Part shown: positions 1,399 to 52,394 of the stretch, in pieces
Layout of the letters: the number at the start of each line of letters is the position of its first letter
Numbering within the stretch: position 1 is the stretch's first letter
Source of the DNA: a virus
Length of the DNA stretch: 64,000 nucleotides
IMG/VR virus record: IMGVR_UViG_3300043409_000680
Span: 1-64,000 of that record
Strand: one strand, 5' to 3'
Position numbers and translations under genes: made by a program
The notes under the pieces: generated by a model
What the model saw: the letters and a program-made list of their open reading frames with translations, nothing else
What the model was told of the DNA's origin: nothing
Database searches by the model: none

Positions 1399-1493
1399 TG
1401 CCTAGACTTATTGATATTAACGAAGTAACTGGTGAAATCCACATTACAGATATTCCTGATGATTTAGAGGAGGACACCAGTGGCACAACTTAA
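1398..1493 (+). CDS. Small hypothetical protein (31 aa, MPRLIDINEVTGEIHI...)
   Basis: TAATG overlap with the upstream stop; not in ORF track because of its length. Confidence 0.55.
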   Translation: MPRLIDINEVTGEIHITDIPDDLEEDTSGTT

Positions 1494-2442
1494 ATATTGG
1501 GATGGTTCTCAGTGGGCTACTGCAGTAATTGGTGCACAAGGTGTACAAGGTATCCAAGGAAATCTTGGTACACAAGGCACAACAGGAGCAGGAACACAAG
1601 GAACAACTGGTACACAAGGTCTTGGTGGTTTTCAAGGTGTTCAAGGTACCCAAGGTATCCAAGGTTTAATTGGAACACAAGGTCTAACAGGTTCACAAGG
1701 AGCAACTGGAACTACAGGAACCCAAGGTTTAACTGGACTTCAAGGCACAACTGGAACCACCGGAACTCAAGGTACTACAGGTTCTCAGGGAACAACCGGC
1801 TCAACAGGTGCACAAGGCCTAACTGGTTCAAATGGAGCACAAGGTACAACCGGAGCAAATGGTTCTCAAGGTTTAACTGGTTTTCAAGGATTAACAGGTT
1901 CGCAAGGAACTACTGGCTCAACTGGAGCTCAGGGTTTGACTGGTTTCCAAGGATCAACCGGAGCACAGGGAACTATTGGTCAAAACGGTACACAAGGATT
2001 AACCGGTTTTCAGGGTTCTACTGGAACACAGGGTTTGACTGGTTTCCAGGGCCTAACGGGACTTCAAGGACCAACTGGTGCCCAAGGAACTACTGGTGCA
2101 AACCTATTAACTACTAAAGGTGACTTAGCCACATTTTCCACCACTACAACCCGTTTGCCAGTTGGTACAGATGGATTGTATTTAAAAGCTGATTCAACTC
2201 AAACTACAGGTTTGGCTTGGGCTGCGGCTGGTGGAGGCTCAGTAACTGTATCAGATACCCCTCCAGTCTCACCTACTGCGGGAGACTTATGGTTTGAGTC
2301 GGATACAACGAAGTCTTATGTATACTATGATTCGTATTGGATTGAACAAGGAAACGTAATTACCACCATAGGAAATCTTGATGGTGGAGCACCTACCTCA
2401 ACATACGGCGGTATGACACTAATTGACGCAGGTGGGGTATAA
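1480..2442 (+). CDS. Collagen triple-helix fibre protein
   Basis: About 190 aa of G-X-Y (GTQ/GLT/GFQ); GAGGAG RBS; C-terminal SDTPP..GDLWF and LDGG motifs. Confidence 0.85.
   Translation: MAQLKYWDGSQWATAVIGAQGVQGIQGNLGTQGTTGAGTQGTTGTQGLGGFQGVQGTQGIQGLIGTQGLTGSQGATGTTGTQGLTGLQGTTGTTGTQGTTGSQGTTGSTGAQGLTGSNGAQGTTGANGSQGLTGFQGLTGSQGTTGSTGAQGLTGFQGSTGAQGTIGQNGTQGLTGFQGSTGTQGLTGFQGLTGLQGPTGAQGTTGANLLTTKGDLATFSTTTTRLPVGTDGLYLKADSTQTTGLAWAAAGGGSVTVSDTPPVSPTAGDLWFESDTTKSYVYYDSYWIEQGNVITTIGNLDGGAPTSTYGGMTLIDAGGV
1531..2100 (+). repeat. Collagen-coding G-X-Y repeat tract
   Basis: Degenerate 9/18-nt repeats encoding QG-T/L-TG. Confidence 0.85.
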
Positions 2443-2459
2443 TAGGTTAAGGAGAAAAT

Positions 2460-3029
2460 ATGCCAATTCAAATACAATATAGACGAGGAACAGCAGCGGA
2501 ATGGACAGCTGCTAATACACTCTTGTCCGCAGGCGAGCCAGGATACGAGACTGATACTGGAAAGTTTAAAGTTGGTAACGGCTCTACTGCTTGGAACTCA
2601 TTAGCGTATGCTTCTGGTATACAAGGTACCCAAGGTACCCAAGGACTACAAGGTACTCAAGGTACCCAAGGGCTCCAAGGAACTCAGGGTCTTCAGGGAA
2701 CACAAGGAGTCCAAGGTATTTTTGGCCCTTACAACACCCCTGTTCAGGGAGTTGCTACATACACATTGCTGGCAACAGACACTGGAAAAACAATTGCCCC
2801 AACAACAGGCGGTGTTACAGTAAATACATCTACATTTAGTGCTGGTGATAACTGCGTTATTTACAATAACTCTGCCGCTAACCAGTTAATTACACAGGGT
2901 TCAGGTGTTACGCTTCGTCTTAGTGGAACAGGAACAACGGGTAACAGAACGCTAGCACAATATGGAGCTGCTACTTTATTGTGCGTTGCAGCAAATACTT
3001 ACGTAATTGCTGGAACTGGACTTTCATGA
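2460..3029 (+). CDS. Tail fibre protein with Mtd_N/hyaluronidase-type N-terminal domain, short collagen and C-terminal adaptor domain
   Basis: IQYRRGTAAEW...GEPGYETDTGKFKVGNG signature; QGTQGLQG repeats. Confidence 0.8.
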   Translation: MPIQIQYRRGTAAEWTAANTLLSAGEPGYETDTGKFKVGNGSTAWNSLAYASGIQGTQGTQGLQGTQGTQGLQGTQGLQGTQGVQGIFGPYNTPVQGVATYTLLATDTGKTIAPTTGGVTVNTSTFSAGDNCVIYNNSAANQLITQGSGVTLRLSGTGTTGNRTLAQYGAATLLCVAANTYVIAGTGLS

Positions 3030-3904
3030 GTGGGTTTCCTTGCATATCTATTGGGATTGACAAGCAATCAACTGCGACTATTTCGGCCGTTAACAACGGT
3101 TCAGCACTAACCCCTACAAGTGATGCTACCTACTACTACTACACCTTTACAACTGGTACTTGCAGTTTAGCCGTATCTGGCTCAAACATTAACTGCGATA
3201 TCCTCACTGTTGCTGGCGGTGGCGGTGGTGGTTCAGGTATTTCTTCTGGAGGTGGCGGAGGAGGTGCTGTTATTCTGTTTACTTCCTACCCACTCTCACC
3301 TAATGATGGAACATATTCAATTACTGTTGGTGCATCTGTTGCTGCTGCAACTAATGGAAATACAACATCTTTTGGTTCGTTAACTCCGCAAGCAACTGGT
3401 GGTGGTCGTGGTGCATCTTCTGCAACAAACGCTGCAGGTAACAGCACTCTAGGTTCGGGTGGTGGAGCATCTGCTGCTTTAGCAACTGTAGGGACTGGTG
3501 CTACTGGAACTGGTACAACTGCTGCGGTAGTTAGTTACCTTTACTATGGTAACAACGGCGGTGCTGGTCGTTCAGCAGGTAACGCATCTACATACGCAGG
3601 CGGAGGTGGAGGAGGCGCTGGAGCAGTAGGCGGAGCAGCATCCTCAGGCACAGGTGGTACAGGTGGTGCAGGACAAGTAATTTCTGGCTTTGGTACGTAT
3701 TCTGGTGGTGGTGGTGGTATTTCCGTTAACACACAGGCTTCTGCTGGTGGTACAGGTGGCGGTGGTGCTGGTGGTTTGACCACTGGAACTGCAGGAACTG
3801 CTAACACAGGTGGTGGTGGTGGTGGTGGCGGAACAACTGGCGGTGCTGGTGGTTCTGGTGTAGTTGTTGTTCGTGTTCCTAGAGCAGTTATTACTGGCGG
3901 TTAA
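3026..3904 (+). CDS. Glycine-rich tail fibre/adhesin protein
   Basis: ATGA overlap start at 3026; many GGGGG runs; ends GGSGVVVVR. Confidence 0.75.
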   Translation: MSGFPCISIGIDKQSTATISAVNNGSALTPTSDATYYYYTFTTGTCSLAVSGSNINCDILTVAGGGGGGSGISSGGGGGGAVILFTSYPLSPNDGTYSITVGASVAAATNGNTTSFGSLTPQATGGGRGASSATNAAGNSTLGSGGGASAALATVGTGATGTGTTAAVVSYLYYGNNGGAGRSAGNASTYAGGGGGGAGAVGGAASSGTGGTGGAGQVISGFGTYSGGGGGISVNTQASAGGTGGGGAGGLTTGTAGTANTGGGGGGGGTTGGAGGSGVVVVRVPRAVITGG

Positions 3905-12507: not shown

Positions 12508-12513
12508 CGACTT

Positions 12514-12540
12514 AGCCCCCGTAAGGGGGCTTTTTCGTTT
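12514..12540 (+). terminator. Rho-independent terminator
   Basis: agccccc-gtaa-gggggct followed by a T run. Confidence 0.85.
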
Positions 12541-12613
12541 ATGATTACCTTGACGCCAGAGCAATCTGGAACCCTGAAGCTTTACCTACACACCTTCCTA
12601 TGGAGGACTTGCT

Positions 12614-40567: not shown

Positions 40568-40626
40568 TCAACTTAGCGCAAAAGCTCACCCGAGCTTAGC
40601 TATCAACCTACAACCGAAAGGACGCC

Positions 40627-41322
40627 ATGAGCGCCGCATCACTAAAGCTAAAGAAAGAAACACCTAATGTAGATTCATACGGATCTGCAGACCTTGAAGA
40701 AGAACTCTTTGAGGTAGAAGATGAAAATGAAACTCCTGCTCGTTCATCTTCAGTACAATCAGGCTGGGCTGCTGCTAAAAAAGTAGCAAGCTCACAATCT
40801 AAGTCTTTTGCAACTGATTTCAAGTTTGACGAAGACGTGCAACTAATCAAGTTTATCTCTGATGAACCAATGGCTTTTATGCAACACTGGGTTAATCGCC
40901 CAGGTAAAAAGTCATTCATCAGCATCGGTGAAGATGATCCACTACTAAAGGTTGGAAGTGTTCCTTCCCCTAAGTTTGCATTCACCGTACTAAATATCTC
41001 TGATGAAGAACCAGAGGTACAGTTAATGACCGTTGGGGTGCGCCTTTGTGGTCAGCTAGAGAAGCTTGCTTCGAATCCGAAGACAGGTCCTCTAAATCGT
41101 GCTGATCTCTATTGGGCAGTAAGCAAGTCTGGTCAAGGCACCAAAACTTCTTACTCTGTAGTTCCTGTAAAGGAACGAGACCTCGCTGAAGAATGGGAAC
41201 TTGATCCCGTTGCTGTTGCTGAGTTGGTCAAAACTGCTAAGCCTCTAGGGTCTGAAGCTCTCCAGACTTCTACCAAGGCCGAGTTGGCAGAGATTGCTCG
41301 TGAAATCGCAGCAAGCATCTAA
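40627..41322 (+). CDS. Single-stranded DNA-binding protein (gp32-like)
   Basis: IKF, QHW, FTVLN, VSKSG.G.KT.Y.V.P; directly upstream of the polymerase gene. Confidence 0.65.
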   Translation: MSAASLKLKKETPNVDSYGSADLEEELFEVEDENETPARSSSVQSGWAAAKKVASSQSKSFATDFKFDEDVQLIKFISDEPMAFMQHWVNRPGKKSFISIGEDDPLLKVGSVPSPKFAFTVLNISDEEPEVQLMTVGVRLCGQLEKLASNPKTGPLNRADLYWAVSKSGQGTKTSYSVVPVKERDLAEEWELDPVAVAELVKTAKPLGSEALQTSTKAELAEIAREIAASI

Positions 41323-41335
41323 GTAACCCATAAAC

Positions 41336-41396
41336 GTTGTGGGGGCCTGGTTTTTAACCTCCTTTCTACAGGCCCCCACAGCACCTATTTAAGGAG
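41336..41396 (+). promoter_or_regulatory. 14-bp stem-loop with anti-SD loop upstream of the DNA polymerase RBS
   Basis: gttgtgggggcctg / caggcccccacagc stem; loop contains acctcctttct; AAGGAG at 41391. Confidence 0.7.
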
Positions 41397-41400
41397 AGCA

Positions 41401-43389
41401 ATGAACATTATTACTACCACAGAACAGCTTGATGAGTTTGTTGCTGCCTACGATAAAGTAGATGCATTTGTCTATGACGTAGAAACTGTTGGAGTACACC
41501 GAGGAGATCCACGACAGAATATTGTTACGTGGATTGCTTTTGCTACTAACGGCCGTGTAGATGTTATTCCTATGGGTCATCCAAATGGTGATTATATTCG
41601 TACCAATTTTCCCCTCTTGCCTTCTGCTCAAGACCGTATTATAAAAGGACTTGCTATTCGTCCATCAGACTACAGCAAAGATGAGCGCAAAGCAACTAAA
41701 GTATTTACAGAAGCACCAGAGCAATTAACTACTGGTGAAGTATTCAAGGCTCTTAAGCCTTTGTTTAGAAGTGATAAACTAAAGATCGGACACAACTTAA
41801 AGTTCGATCTGCAGAGTGTAACCAAGTACCTTGGTGCCCTGCCAGCGCAGCCGTACGCTTGTACCCTCAATGCTGCGTTTATTATTAATAGCCAGAACCG
41901 TCTCAACTTAGGTCTTGATGATTGCCTAAAGCGTGAGTTTGGTTACGAAATGGTTAAGGGTGTGGGTAAAGAAGTCGAAGTCTACAGCTTTGATGAGGTT
42001 GCTACCTACGCTGCCTTAGATGCTGAGTGGACGTGGAAACTGTGGCAAAAGTACTCCCAAGATCTTGACAATGATAACTTGCGTGGACTATTCCGTCTTG
42101 AAATGGATGTGCTTGAGGTTATCTCTAATATGGAGCTTCATGGCGCTAACATTGACGTAAGCCAGTTAACAAAGCTTAAAGCGGAGCTTGAGGTACAGCT
42201 GGAGACTACAAAAGCTACTATCTACAGGCTAGCAGGTAAGGCTTTTAATATTAATAGTATTCCTGAAAAGCAAAGACTTGTTTTTGGCGCTAAGAAAGAT
42301 GGCGGACGAGGTTTAAAACCTAAGGGACGTAATGCGTTAACTCCAAAAGGTACAAAGAATGAAGAAAGCGGAAACGCTCTTTCTATTACAGATTACTCTG
42401 TATCTGAGCCAGCATTAAAAATCTTTCAAGGCAAAGATGCTTTAGTAGATGCTCTACTTAACTATGCTGATTTAAATAAACTATTAACTACATATGTTAT
42501 TCCATACTTAGGTGGAGACATTACCCGTACAACTTCAGGTAAAGCTAAGATTGTTGCTAAGAAGAGTCTGTTAGTTAAGGGAAAGATCCATACTGATTTT
42601 ATACAGTATGGTGCTGAAACGGGTCGCTTTGCTTCACGCAACCCTAACCTTCAAAATATCCCTAACTCTAAAAGTGTCAACGGTAAGGCGATCCGTAACC
42701 TCTTCGTTGCTCCGGATGGTTACAAAATGATTGTGGCTGACTACTCACAGATCGAACCACGTGTCACCGCTTCCTTCAGCGGGGATCGCCTTATGTGTGA
42801 GGGTTACTTAAATGGTGAAGATGTGTACGTAACCATGGGTAAGCTTATGGGTATTGATGATCGTCCCAAGTGTAAGACCTTGTTTCTTGCTGTTATGTAC
42901 GGAGTTGGCCCAGATAAAGTAGCAGCAGATATTGGCTGCTCTGTTAGCGAGGCTCGTGACTTGTTAGATCAGTTTGCAGGTAAATTTCCTACTGTTATGC
43001 GTTATAAGAAGCAAGTCATTTCTGACTCACGTCGACGTGGCCCAATACCTTACGCCAAGACTTATTTAGGACGCCGCCGTTACTTGCCTAATCTTCGTTC
43101 TGGTGTAATGTGGGAGCGTGCCCAGGCAGAGCGCCAGGCGTTTAACACTGTTATACAAGGGTCTTCAGCAGATCTTATAAAGCTTGCTATGATTAGGGCA
43201 CATAAGCTAATCCCGGATAAAGCAAGCCTTATCCTTACCATCCACGATGAACTTGTAACTGTTACTCCAGAGAATTTGGTAGAAGAAACAGAAGCAGCAA
43301 TTCGTGAGGCTATGGAAGGAATTACCGCTCTCAGCATTCCGTTGTTAGCAGAAGTAAGTATTGCTAATAGATGGGGAGATGCTAAATAA
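41401..43389 (+). CDS. polA: Family A DNA polymerase with 3'-5' exonuclease
   Basis: YDVET, GHNLKFD, YAALDA; TGRF..RNPNLQNIP, ADYSQIE, K...L..MYG, IHDE. Confidence 0.95.
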   Translation: MNIITTTEQLDEFVAAYDKVDAFVYDVETVGVHRGDPRQNIVTWIAFATNGRVDVIPMGHPNGDYIRTNFPLLPSAQDRIIKGLAIRPSDYSKDERKATKVFTEAPEQLTTGEVFKALKPLFRSDKLKIGHNLKFDLQSVTKYLGALPAQPYACTLNAAFIINSQNRLNLGLDDCLKREFGYEMVKGVGKEVEVYSFDEVATYAALDAEWTWKLWQKYSQDLDNDNLRGLFRLEMDVLEVISNMELHGANIDVSQLTKLKAELEVQLETTKATIYRLAGKAFNINSIPEKQRLVFGAKKDGGRGLKPKGRNALTPKGTKNEESGNALSITDYSVSEPALKIFQGKDALVDALLNYADLNKLLTTYVIPYLGGDITRTTSGKAKIVAKKSLLVKGKIHTDFIQYGAETGRFASRNPNLQNIPNSKSVNGKAIRNLFVAPDGYKMIVADYSQIEPRVTASFSGDRLMCEGYLNGEDVYVTMGKLMGIDDRPKCKTLFLAVMYGVGPDKVAADIGCSVSEARDLLDQFAGKFPTVMRYKKQVISDSRRRGPIPYAKTYLGRRRYLPNLRSGVMWERAQAERQAFNTVIQGSSADLIKLAMIRAHKLIPDKASLILTIHDELVTVTPENLVEETEAAIREAMEGITALSIPLLAEVSIANRWGDAK

Positions 43390-45266: not shown

Positions 45267-45573
45267 AGGACAAAAGCAATCTCTTAAACATGAAAAACGT
45301 TTAGAGAAAGCAATAGGCGGCCAGCGCAGTGCCGCTTCCGGTGCATTTTGGTCTCGTAAGGGGGACGTCAGAAGTGACGACCTTCTTATTGAACACAAAT
45401 GGACGGGAAAGAAACAAGTTACTATTAAGTCTGACGTACTTAAGAAAATAACTATTGAAGCAATCTTAGATAGCAGAATGCCTGTTCTTGGGTTGCATCT
45501 TGACGGTGAGAATTATGTTGTTCTATGTGAGGAGGATTTCTTTGAGTTACGTAACTCAGTAAAAGGTGAATAA
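45250..45573 (+). CDS. PD-(D/E)XK nuclease, Holliday junction resolvase-like
   Basis: E......GG.R...SGA....KGDV.....IEHK. Confidence 0.75.
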   Translation: MTVKSEGQKQSLKHEKRLEKAIGGQRSAASGAFWSRKGDVRSDDLLIEHKWTGKKQVTIKSDVLKKITIEAILDSRMPVLGLHLDGENYVVLCEEDFFELRNSVKGE

Positions 45574-45905
45574 TGCGATATAGCGATGACCCGTCATGGA
45601 CATGGCGGTATGAGGCTAAGTGTAGGGGCGAAGACACAGAGTTATTTTTTCCACCCCGTGATAAGGCTTTATACAAACCTATCGCAGATAAAGCTAAAGC
45701 AATTTGCTTAGGCAAGGATGGGCGACCAGTTTGCCCAGTTAGACAAGAGTGCCTTAAAGAGGCTATAATGAATGAAGAGCTTCACGGAATATTTGGTGGG
45801 ATGTCCCACAGAGAACGGAATGCAGTAAAACGTAAAATTACAAAGCAGGGGATTACCCTTGATGAGTGGTTAGAGAAAGAGGGCAGAAAGTATGGGAAAA
45901 CCTAG
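45573..45905 (+). CDS. whiB: WhiB-family transcription factor (second copy)
   Basis: W...AKC...D.ELFFP..AKAIC-x8-CPVRQECL..A...HGIFGG. Confidence 0.88.
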   Translation: MRYSDDPSWTWRYEAKCRGEDTELFFPPRDKALYKPIADKAKAICLGKDGRPVCPVRQECLKEAIMNEELHGIFGGMSHRERNAVKRKITKQGITLDEWLEKEGRKYGKT

Positions 45906-48053: not shown

Positions 48054-48332
48054 GTGACTGAAATTCAAGAAGAAAACATCCTGCGTGCAGGAGCCGGCTC
48101 AAATGCTCAATCATTAGGGTCTGCAATAGCACACGCTTTATATGAATCCCCACAGGTTAAGGTAAGGGCCGTAGGCGCCTCAGCCGTAAACCAAGCAGTG
48201 AAGGCAATTGCTATCGCTAGTGGCTACGTAGCCCCTAGAGGAATGCGATTAGCTACTATCCCCGGGTTTACCACAGTGGACTCTAGAGATGGAAAAATCT
48301 CAGCAATAGTATTTACAATTTTCTCTATTTGA
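48054..48332 (+). CDS. spoVS: Stage V sporulation protein S family (Alba-like nucleic-acid-binding protein)
   Basis: S...S.G.AIA......V...AVGA.AVNQAVKAIAIA.GYVAP.G......PGF......ISAI.F. Confidence 0.9.
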   Translation: MTEIQEENILRAGAGSNAQSLGSAIAHALYESPQVKVRAVGASAVNQAVKAIAIASGYVAPRGMRLATIPGFTTVDSRDGKISAIVFTIFSI

Positions 48333-48740: not shown

Positions 48741-48744
48741 AATA

Positions 48745-48788
48745 TGTTATAATAAGTAATAGGGCCTGACTAACCTCGGGCCCTATTA
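48745..48788 (+). promoter_or_regulatory. Extended -10 promoter (TGtTATAAT) plus 5' leader hairpin
   Basis: TATAAT 48748-48753; taatagggcctga / tcgggccctatta stem; AGGAGG follows. Confidence 0.65.
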
Positions 48789-48803
48789 AAATTAGGAGGC
48801 GCA

Positions 48804-49034
48804 ATGCTAGAACAGTTATATGAAAAAGCAAAACTAGAAAGCGTAGCTAACCGCTGCGTTGTAGCACAATGGGGCCAGCAATTTACAGGCTCTGACAAAG
48901 AAGCCTTTAATGCATCTATTGCAGATGATGACTTCTCTAATAAAAACCTGTTTAACTTATACAAAGATGCCGGGGCCAACTTTAGTTTAACTTCTCTCCG
49001 TGCTCATAGAGTAGGAGAATGTGGATGTCGCTAG
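48804..49034 (+). CDS. Small Zn-binding HTH-like protein
   Basis: C.V...S.TSLRAHR.GECGC. Confidence 0.65.
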   Translation: MLEQLYEKAKLESVANRCVVAQWGQQFTGSDKEAFNASIADDDFSNKNLFNLYKDAGANFSLTSLRAHRVGECGCR

Positions 49035-50170: not shown

Positions 50171-50185
50171 CGCATTTAGCAGTAC

Positions 50186-50231
50186 GAAAAGTCCGGTGTA
50201 ATGCATACTATGTGCATACGCCGGCTTTTTC
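50186..50231. terminator. Long hairpin, probable (bidirectional) terminator
   Basis: gaaaagtccggtgta.atgcata / tgtgcatacgccggcttttt. Confidence 0.65.
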
Positions 50232-50253
50232 ATTGTAAAGGACTATATGTACC

Positions 50254-52313: not shown

Positions 52314-52324
52314 GTATTTAACAC

Positions 52325-52360
52325 CAAGGCCCCGGGGATTACACCTCGGGGTTTTGTTAT
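52325..52360 (+). terminator. Rho-independent terminator
   Basis: caaggccccgggg / cctcggggttttg followed by T-rich sequence. Confidence 0.75.
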
Positions 52361-52394
52361 TTGCGGTATGATAGGAAGGGTCTAAGGAGTATAT

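Follow-up and report, generated by a model that had tools for sequence, protein, structure and literature searches.

Between the putative single-strand DNA binding protein (SSB) gene and the DNA polymerase (pol) gene of a freshwater myovirus lies a conserved sense-strand RNA structure, a hairpin confirmed beyond chance, whose loop sequence supports its reading as a mimic of the 16S rRNA 3′ tail, i.e. of the anti-Shine-Dalgarno (anti-SD) sequence, adjoining the pol ribosome-binding site. We suggest, with a probability of about 0.4, that the loop masks the pol Shine-Dalgarno sequence (SD) in cis, in which case the hairpin would regulate the SSB-PolA message of a freshwater actinobacterial myovirus clade as a cis-acting RNA element. 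The window, by which we mean the whole stretch of DNA analysed, comprises 64,000 nucleotides of an IMG/VR record (IMGVR_UViG_3300043409_000680) of 73,633 bases (~74 kb) that is 75% complete.

A conserved sense-strand hairpin at the SSB-pol junction

The putative SSB gene (40627..41322, + strand, 231 aa) matches PHROG 1192, 'single strand DNA binding protein', at E 3.4e-4, and homology to a Streptomyces phage Alone3 gene that carries an SSB annotation (BLASTP E 2e-10) bears out the assignment made in an earlier note on this DNA; the protein had no Pfam match and no PDB sequence match. The downstream gene (41401..43389, + strand, 662 aa, start codon ATG at 41401-41403) encodes a family A DNA polymerase, with matches to Pfam DNA_pol_A (3.7e-84) and DNA_pol_A_exo1 (1.8e-13) and to PHROG 17 (1.1e-114). 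A blastn search of 40600-42400 against GenBank phages returned no match, i.e. no close cultured relative. The record carries a WhiB gene, so an actinobacterium is the likely host. Three public RNA runs gave few contigs, at 2-4x and none over 41273-41726, and such contigs give neither ends nor strand.

The hairpin (41336-41382, + strand) begins after a gap of 13 nt from the SSB stop codon. Folding and covariation both support its 5′ arm GTTGTGGGGGCCTG (41336-41349) and 3′ arm CAGGCCCCCACAGC (41369-41382), which form 14 pairs with a GC-rich core, including one U41337·G41381. The 19-nt loop GTTTTTAACCTCCTTTCTA (41350-41368) consists of a U-rich variable 5′ part and a conserved 3′ block, ACCTCCTTTCT (41357-41367), within which CTCCTT occupies 41359-41364. 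An 8-nt pyrimidine-rich linker of variable sequence (41383..41390), about 5-11 nt long in relatives, separates the stem from the PolA SD, AAGGAG (41391-41396), which is complementary to loop CTCCTT. Stem, loop, CTCCTT and AAGGAG are thus where the earlier note had placed them. The predicted fold has an energy of -31.7 kcal/mol against a shuffle mean of -19.9 (z -4.3; equalled by 0/200 shuffles), and the 10-mer CCTCCTTTCT occurs only once in the 73,633-base record. The tail after the stem, ACCUAUUUAAGG, has no T-run, in keeping with the absence of a U-tract noted earlier, and a terminator scan detected no + strand terminator-like site at 41336-41400; the clear terminators of the record (12508-12613, 50171-50253 and 52314-52394) have short loops and U-tracts. 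Between the SSB stop and the stem, a conserved and unexplained motif, CCCAU(U/A)A (41327..41333, + strand), is present in most main-clade junctions of the anchored listing, and also in one lineage (L030) whose loop has no mimic.

All 42 distinct homologous SSB-pol junctions contain the hairpin, with stems of 10-16 bp and loops of 11-24 nt. Covariation was assessed on 30 of the 42: 96.9% of stem cells are paired and double changes occur in 10/10 pairs, a value reached by 0/500 shuffles, while slid controls are 34-67% paired. Among the 528 stem cells, G·U wobbles (42) far exceed A·C (3), which identifies the mRNA-sense (+) strand as the folded one. These results come from an analysis anchored on the hairpin, used in place of a MAFFT-based RNAalifold run whose 130-column alignment misaligned the stems and recovered only 7 pairs. 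A covariance-model search gave one strong match per record in 10/10 large records, always at the SSB-pol junction; the only candidates for second copies in relatives' genomes were weak matches in two records (E 0.24-0.74), and four fragment records had none. The divergent hairpin of L063 itself also escaped the model. Rfam gave 0 matches over the whole window at gathering thresholds, and around the hairpin its best score was at most 15.7 bits against cut-offs of 60-100.

The hairpin itself extends beyond this clade. Streptomyces phages with 38% Pol identity have a GC-rich hairpin after SSB, with other loops and U-containing tails, and in two of them, GiJojo and pSt2308, the homologous hairpin follows SSB with one or two small genes between it and pol. 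Its position at the SSB 3′ end is probably ancestral, since it is common to these distant phages. Pairing of the Alone3 loop with its own ribosome-binding site was considered and rejected; judging from GiJojo and pSt2308, UAGA/UCUA merely lengthens the stem. In L067, a distant relative of high GC content, the hairpin loop is C-rich and ACCUCC stands in the linker just before the pol SD; the sister clade of L067 is represented by one extra, near-identical contig. Two more distant Pol relatives (L223 and L224) have no such element.

Identity of the loop to the 16S rRNA 3′ tail

The most conserved part of the loop is the block ACCUCCUUUCU, which is nearly invariant: each of its 11 positions is conserved at 82-100%, compared with 37-61% in 8 of the 9 flanking positions tallied. 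The core CUCCU is found in the loop of 39/42 junctions, and in every one of these motif-bearing junctions the mimic block is predicted to be unpaired within the loop. Three lineages (L011/L012, L030 and L064) have the hairpin and a normal SD without the mimic.

In the window the mimic, ACCTCCTTTCTA, spans 12 nt (41357..41368, + strand) and is identical to the region of the actinobacterial 16S free 3′ tail. These 12 nt match the 16S end of genome L103, ...ggatcacctcctttctaagg, where the identical partner reads ...cacctcctttcta...; the candidate host is inferred from WhiB. The claim that the loop carries an actinobacterial 16S 3′ end was upheld when we looked in the family of the best WhiB-matching genome, the candidate host family: the tail string GGATCACCTCCTTTCT is present in 45 of its 61 genomes, the reversed control in 0, and in L103 the string closes the Rfam SSU match. 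Measured as the longest shared string, identity to the 16S tail reaches at least 11 nt in 32/42 junctions, and the chance of an identity of 11-12 nt is ~4^-11 per position. The SSB ribosome-binding site of many relatives is GAAAGGA(G), the other half of the tail's complement, so the mimic matches the SDs of both cistrons.

Pairing potential with the pol SD and proposed masking in cis

The window loop can form a 6-bp duplex with the pol SD (CUCCUU/AAGGAG, -8.2 kcal/mol), and 4-7 contiguous loop-SD pairs are possible in all 39 motif-bearing junctions, at -6.4 kcal/mol or stronger and mostly at -7 to -11. The SD always lies a short, variable-sequence linker downstream of the stem; in the window the hairpin ends 8 nt before it, adjacent and without overlap.

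We propose that a very stable, covarying hairpin just past the SSB stop, which probably has a 3′-end, processing or insulating role, would free pol from coupling to SSB, a heavily translated cistron. The enlarged loop of the freshwater clade would display a copy of the host 16S free 3′ tail and act as a built-in anti-SD, its core CUCCU(U) pairing with the pol SD 5-11 nt beyond the stem. The loop would then compete with the 30S subunit by means of the ribosome's own sequence and hold translation of the polymerase beneath the SSB level; the loop-SD pairing may gain stability from a protein or a second contact. That this pairing forms, and that it represses translation, is what we infer from the following. 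Counted for masking in cis are the hairpin in every junction, its covariation and + strand fold, the near-universal CUCCU and its ability to pair wherever it occurs, the short linker and the single copy per record. To these we add the ordinary GGAG-type SDs of the record's other genes, a stem that, unlike the record's terminators, has no U-tract, and the ACCUCC in the L067 linker.

Other observations count against masking in cis and keep the proposal tentative. Of the 11-12 conserved loop bases, the pol SD offers partners for no more than 4-7, which leaves the A before CCUCC, and UUCU, partnerless despite their conservation. Compared with 200 shuffles of the same loop, loop-SD energies have z-scores of -2.3 to +0.6, mostly ~0, so the strength of pairing would be about the same for a pyrimidine-rich loop with its bases in any order. 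The base 5′ of AGGAG varies (A, G, C or U) and is C or U in at least 11 junctions, with no compensation in the loop. The covariation check on SSB-pol junctions that the earlier note had called for gave a divided answer: the stems covary and the loop is conserved, but no covariation backs the loop-SD helix, whose two partners are too nearly invariant to give such a signal. From helix rise, the geometry appears strained, since linkers of about 5-11 nt would have to reach back along stems of 10-16 bp. The H-type pseudoknot drawn in the earlier note is a candidate structure, given the uncompensated changes beside the SD, the z of ~0 against shuffled loops and an 8-nt linker that must span a 14-bp stem. 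The loop-SD duplex is also equal in strength to the SD-16S duplex, so that loop-SD pairing alone could only attenuate translation. The lineages without the mimic, and the hairpin that stays with SSB in GiJojo and pSt2308, weigh on the same side.

Two segments of the SSB coding sequence, GCTCTCC (41257-41263) and ATTGCTC (41293-41299), were considered as long-range partners of the pol ribosome-binding site and rejected: the matches are confined to sub-clades, are uncompensated where the site differs and have z ~0.

Pseudoknots that sequester an SD are known from the E. coli rpsO/S15 operator and from the preQ1-II and SAM-II riboswitches. The phage element resembles them in having a hairpin loop complementary to a downstream SD, where H-type pairing would limit 30S access. 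It differs in its first stem, which at 10-16 bp is far longer than usual and is followed by a short linker, in a loop that copies the whole 16S tail in place of a minimal anti-SD, in a second helix without covariation support, and in being a candidate without a known ligand or protein.

Alternative roles, known systems and meaning

A somewhat unlikely alternative to masking in cis is a decoy function for the mimic or an action in trans, the latter being the second option of the earlier note. The stable 3′ end marked by the hairpin would belong to an abundant SSB message or to a processed fragment, and the loop would either capture SDs in any register on other messages, of phage or host, or bind and titrate a factor with affinity for the 16S tail. 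Such a role would account for conservation of the full 11-12 nt tail, beyond the part that pairs with the pol SD, and of a loop order that the pairing energy does not require; it also fits with a mimic that suits the SDs of both cistrons and with the attachment of the hairpin to the 3′ end of SSB in GiJojo and pSt2308. Published work supplies two parallels. Actinobacterial 6C sRNA is reported to act through a C/U-rich seed exposed by the loop of a stable hairpin and, like other Gram-positive sRNAs with C-rich loops, targets G-rich ribosome-binding regions (PMC6486639). OLE RNA is a non-ribosomal RNA with a perfect host anti-SD copy, bound by bS21, and an SD-like partner (PMC12054373). The 6C sRNA has two hairpins with C-rich loops, whereas the phage element is a single hairpin within an operon, has no Rfam 6C match and carries the 16S tail as its loop. 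OLE RNA is a ~600-nt cellular ncRNA of Bacillota whose 6-nt mimic, in P6, is already stem-paired, whereas the phage mimic is 11-12 nt long, lies in a loop on an mRNA and would have a real SD as its partner (PMC12054373). With one copy per genome, titration would need high transcript levels, and the main clade has no U-tract to make a defined 3′ end. No bS21 gene (Ribosomal_S21, PF01165) was found in the 75%-complete record, any partner is hypothetical, and a purely trans-acting RNA would not need to stay always within ~11 nt of an SD.

We hold it improbable that the hairpin is instead a protein-binding translational operator through which Pol, SSB or a neighbour represses pol translation, in the way of T4 gp43 at its own operator, the 16S likeness being secondary. 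A covarying stem with a conserved loop directly 5′ of a ribosome-binding site is classical operator anatomy, the site precedes a DNA polymerase gene, and the pol SD and spacer, GGAGAGCAAUG, are unusually constant in the clade while the SSB ribosome-binding site varies. The T4 and RB69 gp43 and gp32 operators (PMC3014915, PMC535899) provide precedents: a hairpin directly 5′ of a pol ribosome-binding site, a replication module with an SSB gene, and the shared idea of balancing replication proteins at the translation step. The earlier note's comparison with gp43 and gp32 is an analogy only. The polymerase here is of family A and that of T4 and RB69 of family B. The gp43 operator hairpin is 5′ of the polymerase ribosome-binding site and overlaps it; the phage hairpin is adjacent to the SD, 8 nt upstream. 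The gp32 operator is 5′ of gene 32, whereas the phage element follows the SSB gene; its stem and loop are also of other sizes and another sequence, and binding here is hypothetical. Counting further against an operator, a match of 11-12 nt to the 16S tail is very unlikely to be coincidence, Pfam and PHROG searches identified no RNA-binding domain in the neighbours, and L030, which has no loop motif, keeps the same SD.

Equally improbable, in our judgement, is a purely structural 3′-end hairpin, i.e. a weak terminator, exonuclease block or processing site that would keep SSB mRNA above pol mRNA, with a loop that has no translational role. Like intrinsic terminators and intercistronic stabilising hairpins, the phage element has a GC-rich stem right after a highly expressed gene, in the position that holds terminator-like hairpins with other loops in the Streptomyces phage relatives; the three freshwater lineages without the mimic, and the U-rich tails after the stem in the L060-L063 subclade, point the same way. 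However, intrinsic terminators have loops of ~3-8 nt and a U-tract, as do the short-looped sites in this record, whereas the window loop is 19 nt without a U-tract and loops of 11-24 nt are large for such a role. Conservation of the loop is not a terminator property, and a structural role leaves both the contrast between the 11 loop bases and their flanks and the 16S-tail identity unexplained.

In mycobacteria, toxin-antitoxin nucleases reportedly take off precisely this tail: MazF-mt11 is reported to cut C^ACCU and free the terminal 11 nt of 16S rRNA (PMC12274833), and RelE1 to have a cut site just upstream of the anti-SD (PMC12620021). The conserved phage block is the same 11-nt piece as MazF-mt11 releases. 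It is preceded by C in 0/39 motif-bearing junctions, so the CACCU cleavage motif is never present. We consider it very improbable that the loop is a counter-defence device against host toxins that attack the ribosomal anti-SD tail, either soaking up or inhibiting such a toxin or another tail-binding factor, or forming a ready-made SD/anti-SD helix with the pol SD so that tail-less ribosomes could start on pol.

A feature of the opposite strand or of the DNA, in which AGAAAGGAGGT would serve a minus-strand gene as its ribosome-binding site or the inverted repeat would be a DNA site, is largely refuted: in the 12 nt that follow GGAGGT on the - strand there is no ATG, GTG or TTG, the nearest ATG starts a frame of 4 codons, loop indels of 1-3 nt with compensatory stem changes are not coding-like, and folding of that strand would turn the 42 G·U pairs into A·C mismatches. 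What speaks for it comes from elsewhere in IMG/VR, where the same 14-mer occurs in at least 109 stretches: among the 80 loci classified, 57 have an ordinary SD opposite the 14-mer, on the other strand, followed at 4-12 nt by a start codon, while 8 are further family members, 13 are other contexts and the remaining 2 are rule-flagged but weakly folding.

We found no description of such a phage hairpin in the literature, as far as titles and the beginnings of abstracts tell. It is a well-supported, previously uncatalogued structured RNA of abundant, mostly uncultured freshwater phages, and its conserved part copies the tail with which the ribosome itself binds mRNA. Because mutations in the loop leave all coding sequence intact, its function is directly testable. 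If the pol SD is masked in cis, the hairpin would be a compact way to set, on a single transcript, the ratio of stoichiometric SSB to catalytic Pol; a mimic that worked as a decoy or in trans would represent a new way for phages to interfere with translation in the host or with ribosome-aimed defences.

The hairpin at the SSB–polymerase junction

The IMG/VR record comprises 73,633 bases at an estimated completeness of 75%, and the window, its first 64 kb, has a G+C content of ∼42%. Pfam and PHROG scans identified the sheath, tube and baseplate genes of a contractile-tail phage. Its replication module runs from a DnaB-like helicase through a primase, a dNMP kinase, an SNF2 helicase, two unknown genes and a putative SSB to a family A DNA polymerase, two more unknown genes, a RecA-like protein and a WhiB-like regulator. 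The phage-encoded WhiB-like protein (45573–45905; Pfam 3.8e-18), which is accompanied by a SpoVS-like protein (48054–48332; Pfam 3.1e-23), suggests an actinobacterial host; its top genomic match, at 67% identity, is encoded by a Rhodoluna MAG contig of 7.5 kb. Freshwater or lake metagenomes account for 16 of the 17 DNA runs containing the stretch. Genes that may specify tail fibres or tropism stand side by side at 1480–3904; they encode collagen-repeat proteins, an Mtd_N (major tropism determinant N-terminal) domain and a protein with a glycine-rich domain.

The hairpin lies on the plus strand, with arms at 41336–41349 and 41369–41382 (14 pairs, one of them U·G) and a 19-nt loop (41350–41368) that carries the block ACCTCCTTTCT at 41357–41367. 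The polymerase SD, AAGGAG (41391–41396), and start codon, ATG (41401), follow on the same strand. Each coordinate given in the earlier note was correct on recheck. The predicted fold has a free energy of −31.7 kcal/mol (z −4.3), equalled by 0 of 200 shuffles. No U-tract is present 3′ of the stem, as had been noted, and a scan for terminator-like sites was empty on the plus strand at the hairpin; three sites elsewhere in the record (12508–12613, 50171–50253 and 52314–52394) are textbook terminators, each with a short loop and a U-tract. Another GC-rich hairpin without a U-tract (48741–48803; 13 bp, loop CUAACC) lies directly 5′ of the strong SD (AGGAGG) of the gene at 48804, in a similar layout with a loop that is not anti-SD.

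Of 68 viral loci recovered in a polymerase search, 62 were usable (polymerase start present, enough upstream sequence, same clade, 65–95% polymerase identity). Together with the window they gave 42 distinct junctions between SSB stop and polymerase start, and in all 42 a hairpin is predicted between the SSB stop and the polymerase SD. Covariation was counted over the inner 10 pairs of 30 junctions. Left out were 8 junctions whose inner hairpin is identical, relative L002, which has a bulge, and the 3 that lack the loop motif. Pairing was retained in 96.9% of cells, and both-side changes occurred at 10/10 pairs (54 cells); none of 500 shuffles matched the observed covariation, and slid controls were only 34–67% paired. 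The stem therefore covaries, which the earlier note had proposed as a check. Full-stem cells comprise 471 Watson-Crick, 42 G·U, 3 A·C and 12 other combinations, and the predominance of G·U over A·C indicates that the folded molecule is the mRNA-sense strand.

Several flanking features recur. The motif CCCAU(U/A)A (41327–41333), 5–8 nt upstream of the stem, is kept in most main-clade junctions and occurs also in L030, a relative without the mimic loop; in the L060–L062 subclade a C-rich stretch at this position is complementary to the stem 5′ arm. The polymerase spacer AGCA (41397–41400) and first codons AUGAAU/C are nearly invariant clade-wide, with GGAGAGCAAUG in most junctions, in contrast to the variable SSB ribosome-binding site and spacer.

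The loop as a copy of the 16S rRNA tail

When the 39 junctions with a CUCCU core are anchored on it, eleven loop positions, A-C-C-U-C-C-U-U-U-C-U, are 82–100% conserved. Eight of nine flanking positions tallied reach 37–61%, and the ninth, five bases 5′ of the core, is U in 85%. Compared with the 16S end, the longest common string measures at least 11 nt in 32/42 junctions, 6–9 nt in 7 and ≤5 nt in 3. Those three, L030, L064 and L011 (to which L012 is identical), retain the hairpin and a normal SD. The actinobacterial 16S end given in the earlier note was checked: 45 of 61 genomes from the family of the Rhodoluna MAG contain GGATCACCTCCTTTCT (1–4 copies each; reversed control, 0 matches), and in L103, actinobacterial genome DNA used for comparison, the Rfam SSU match ends within GGATCACCTCCTTTCT and the DNA reads ...ggatcacctcctttctaaggagc. 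The 12 nt common to the window loop and the L103 16S end are the single-stranded tail after the last 16S helix. In the L103 rRNA operon (1500–1525) the tail CCUCCUUUCU is followed immediately by AAGGAGC, so the 16S precursor bears an SD-like partner beside its anti-SD, and both sequence blocks recur in the phage element.

Within the record CCTCCTTTCT occurs once. R1, a covariance model built from the hairpin, gave one strong match (E 3e-5 or better) per record in 10/10 records of 72–104 kb, always at the SSB–polymerase junction, with only three weak extras (E 0.24–0.74). Rfam yielded nothing at gathering level, and nearby matches were chance-level. Elsewhere in viruses, 80 loci classified from at least 109 stretches with the 14-mer ACCTCCTTTCTACG comprise 57 complements of an ordinary SD with an other-strand start codon, 8 further members of the hairpin family, 2 weak folds picked by the hairpin rule and 13 other contexts. 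We conclude that the element is a real and conserved structure of the sense strand, present in single copy and uncatalogued, and that its loop is a mimic of the 16S tail.

Possible functions of the loop

Our preferred reading, with a probability of about 0.4, is that the hairpin works in cis as an anti-SD that attenuates translation of the polymerase, and that it arose from an ancestral hairpin at the SSB 3′ end. Loop CUCCU(U) would pair with the polymerase SD, damping initiation. The pseudoknot proposed earlier is possible, the loop being able to pair with the SD in 39/39 motif-bearing junctions, with no duplex weaker than −6.4 kcal/mol and most between −7 and −11, but our tests do not set it apart: loops of shuffled sequence pair equally well (z ∼0), and just 4–7 of the 11–12 conserved loop bases take part. 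The base 5′ of AGGAG is A, G, C or U, and the loop is unchanged throughout. From helix dimensions, linkers of ∼5–11 nt running back along 10–16 bp stems seem feasible but strained. Since the loop–SD duplex is as strong as the SD–16S duplex, alone it could only damp initiation. Two SSB-coding segments were rejected as conserved partners of the polymerase ribosome-binding region, being confined to sub-clades and uncompensated elsewhere: GCTCTCC (41257–41263), a perfect 7-nt complement of SD plus spacer (41393–41399) that pairs with the SD in the MFE structure of 41250–41415, and ATTGCTC (41293–41299), a perfect 7-nt complement of spacer plus start (41396–41402).

A trans-acting tail mimic, an option also raised earlier, or a decoy one is less probable than cis attenuation. 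The identity along the whole tail is easier to explain if the loop has to act as the tail of the ribosome does: such a loop could face SDs in any register, SSB's own SD, GAAAGGA(G), using the other half of the complement, or a factor recognising the 16S tail. The anti-SD mimic of OLE RNA is described as bound by bS21 (PMC12054373), and 6C sRNA as having C-rich loops (PMC6486639). The mycobacterial toxin MazF-mt11 is reported to cut C^ACCU, freeing the terminal 11 nt of the 16S tail (PMC12274833), and RelE1 to remove the tail similarly (PMC12620021). The base 5′ of ACCU is never C in 39 loops, so CACCU is absent, which is only a hint of a relationship to tail-cutting toxins.

We consider a protein-bound operator unlikely; the analogy drawn earlier to the T4 operators fails on polymerase family, the enzyme here being family A, and on the anatomy of the hairpin. 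Similarly doubtful is a structural 3′-end hairpin only. An opposite-strand or DNA-level feature is highly improbable, and no opposite-strand ORF uses the loop complement as its RBS, because the minus strand at the hairpin has no start codon within 12 nt.

Origin of the element

The nearest cultured relatives are Streptomyces phages, at ∼38% polymerase identity. Alone3 and BRock have the order SSB, hairpin, polymerase; in GiJojo and pSt2308 the same hairpin lies directly 3′ of SSB, and one or two small genes precede the polymerase. Loops in these phages are not anti-SD-like, UAGA/UCUA lengthens the stem, and U-runs occur in the tails. The stem is therefore probably old and accompanies the 3′ end of SSB, and its 16S-tail loop was elaborated in the freshwater clade. 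The element would be a novel variant of known anti-SD regulation and lies outside any described family.
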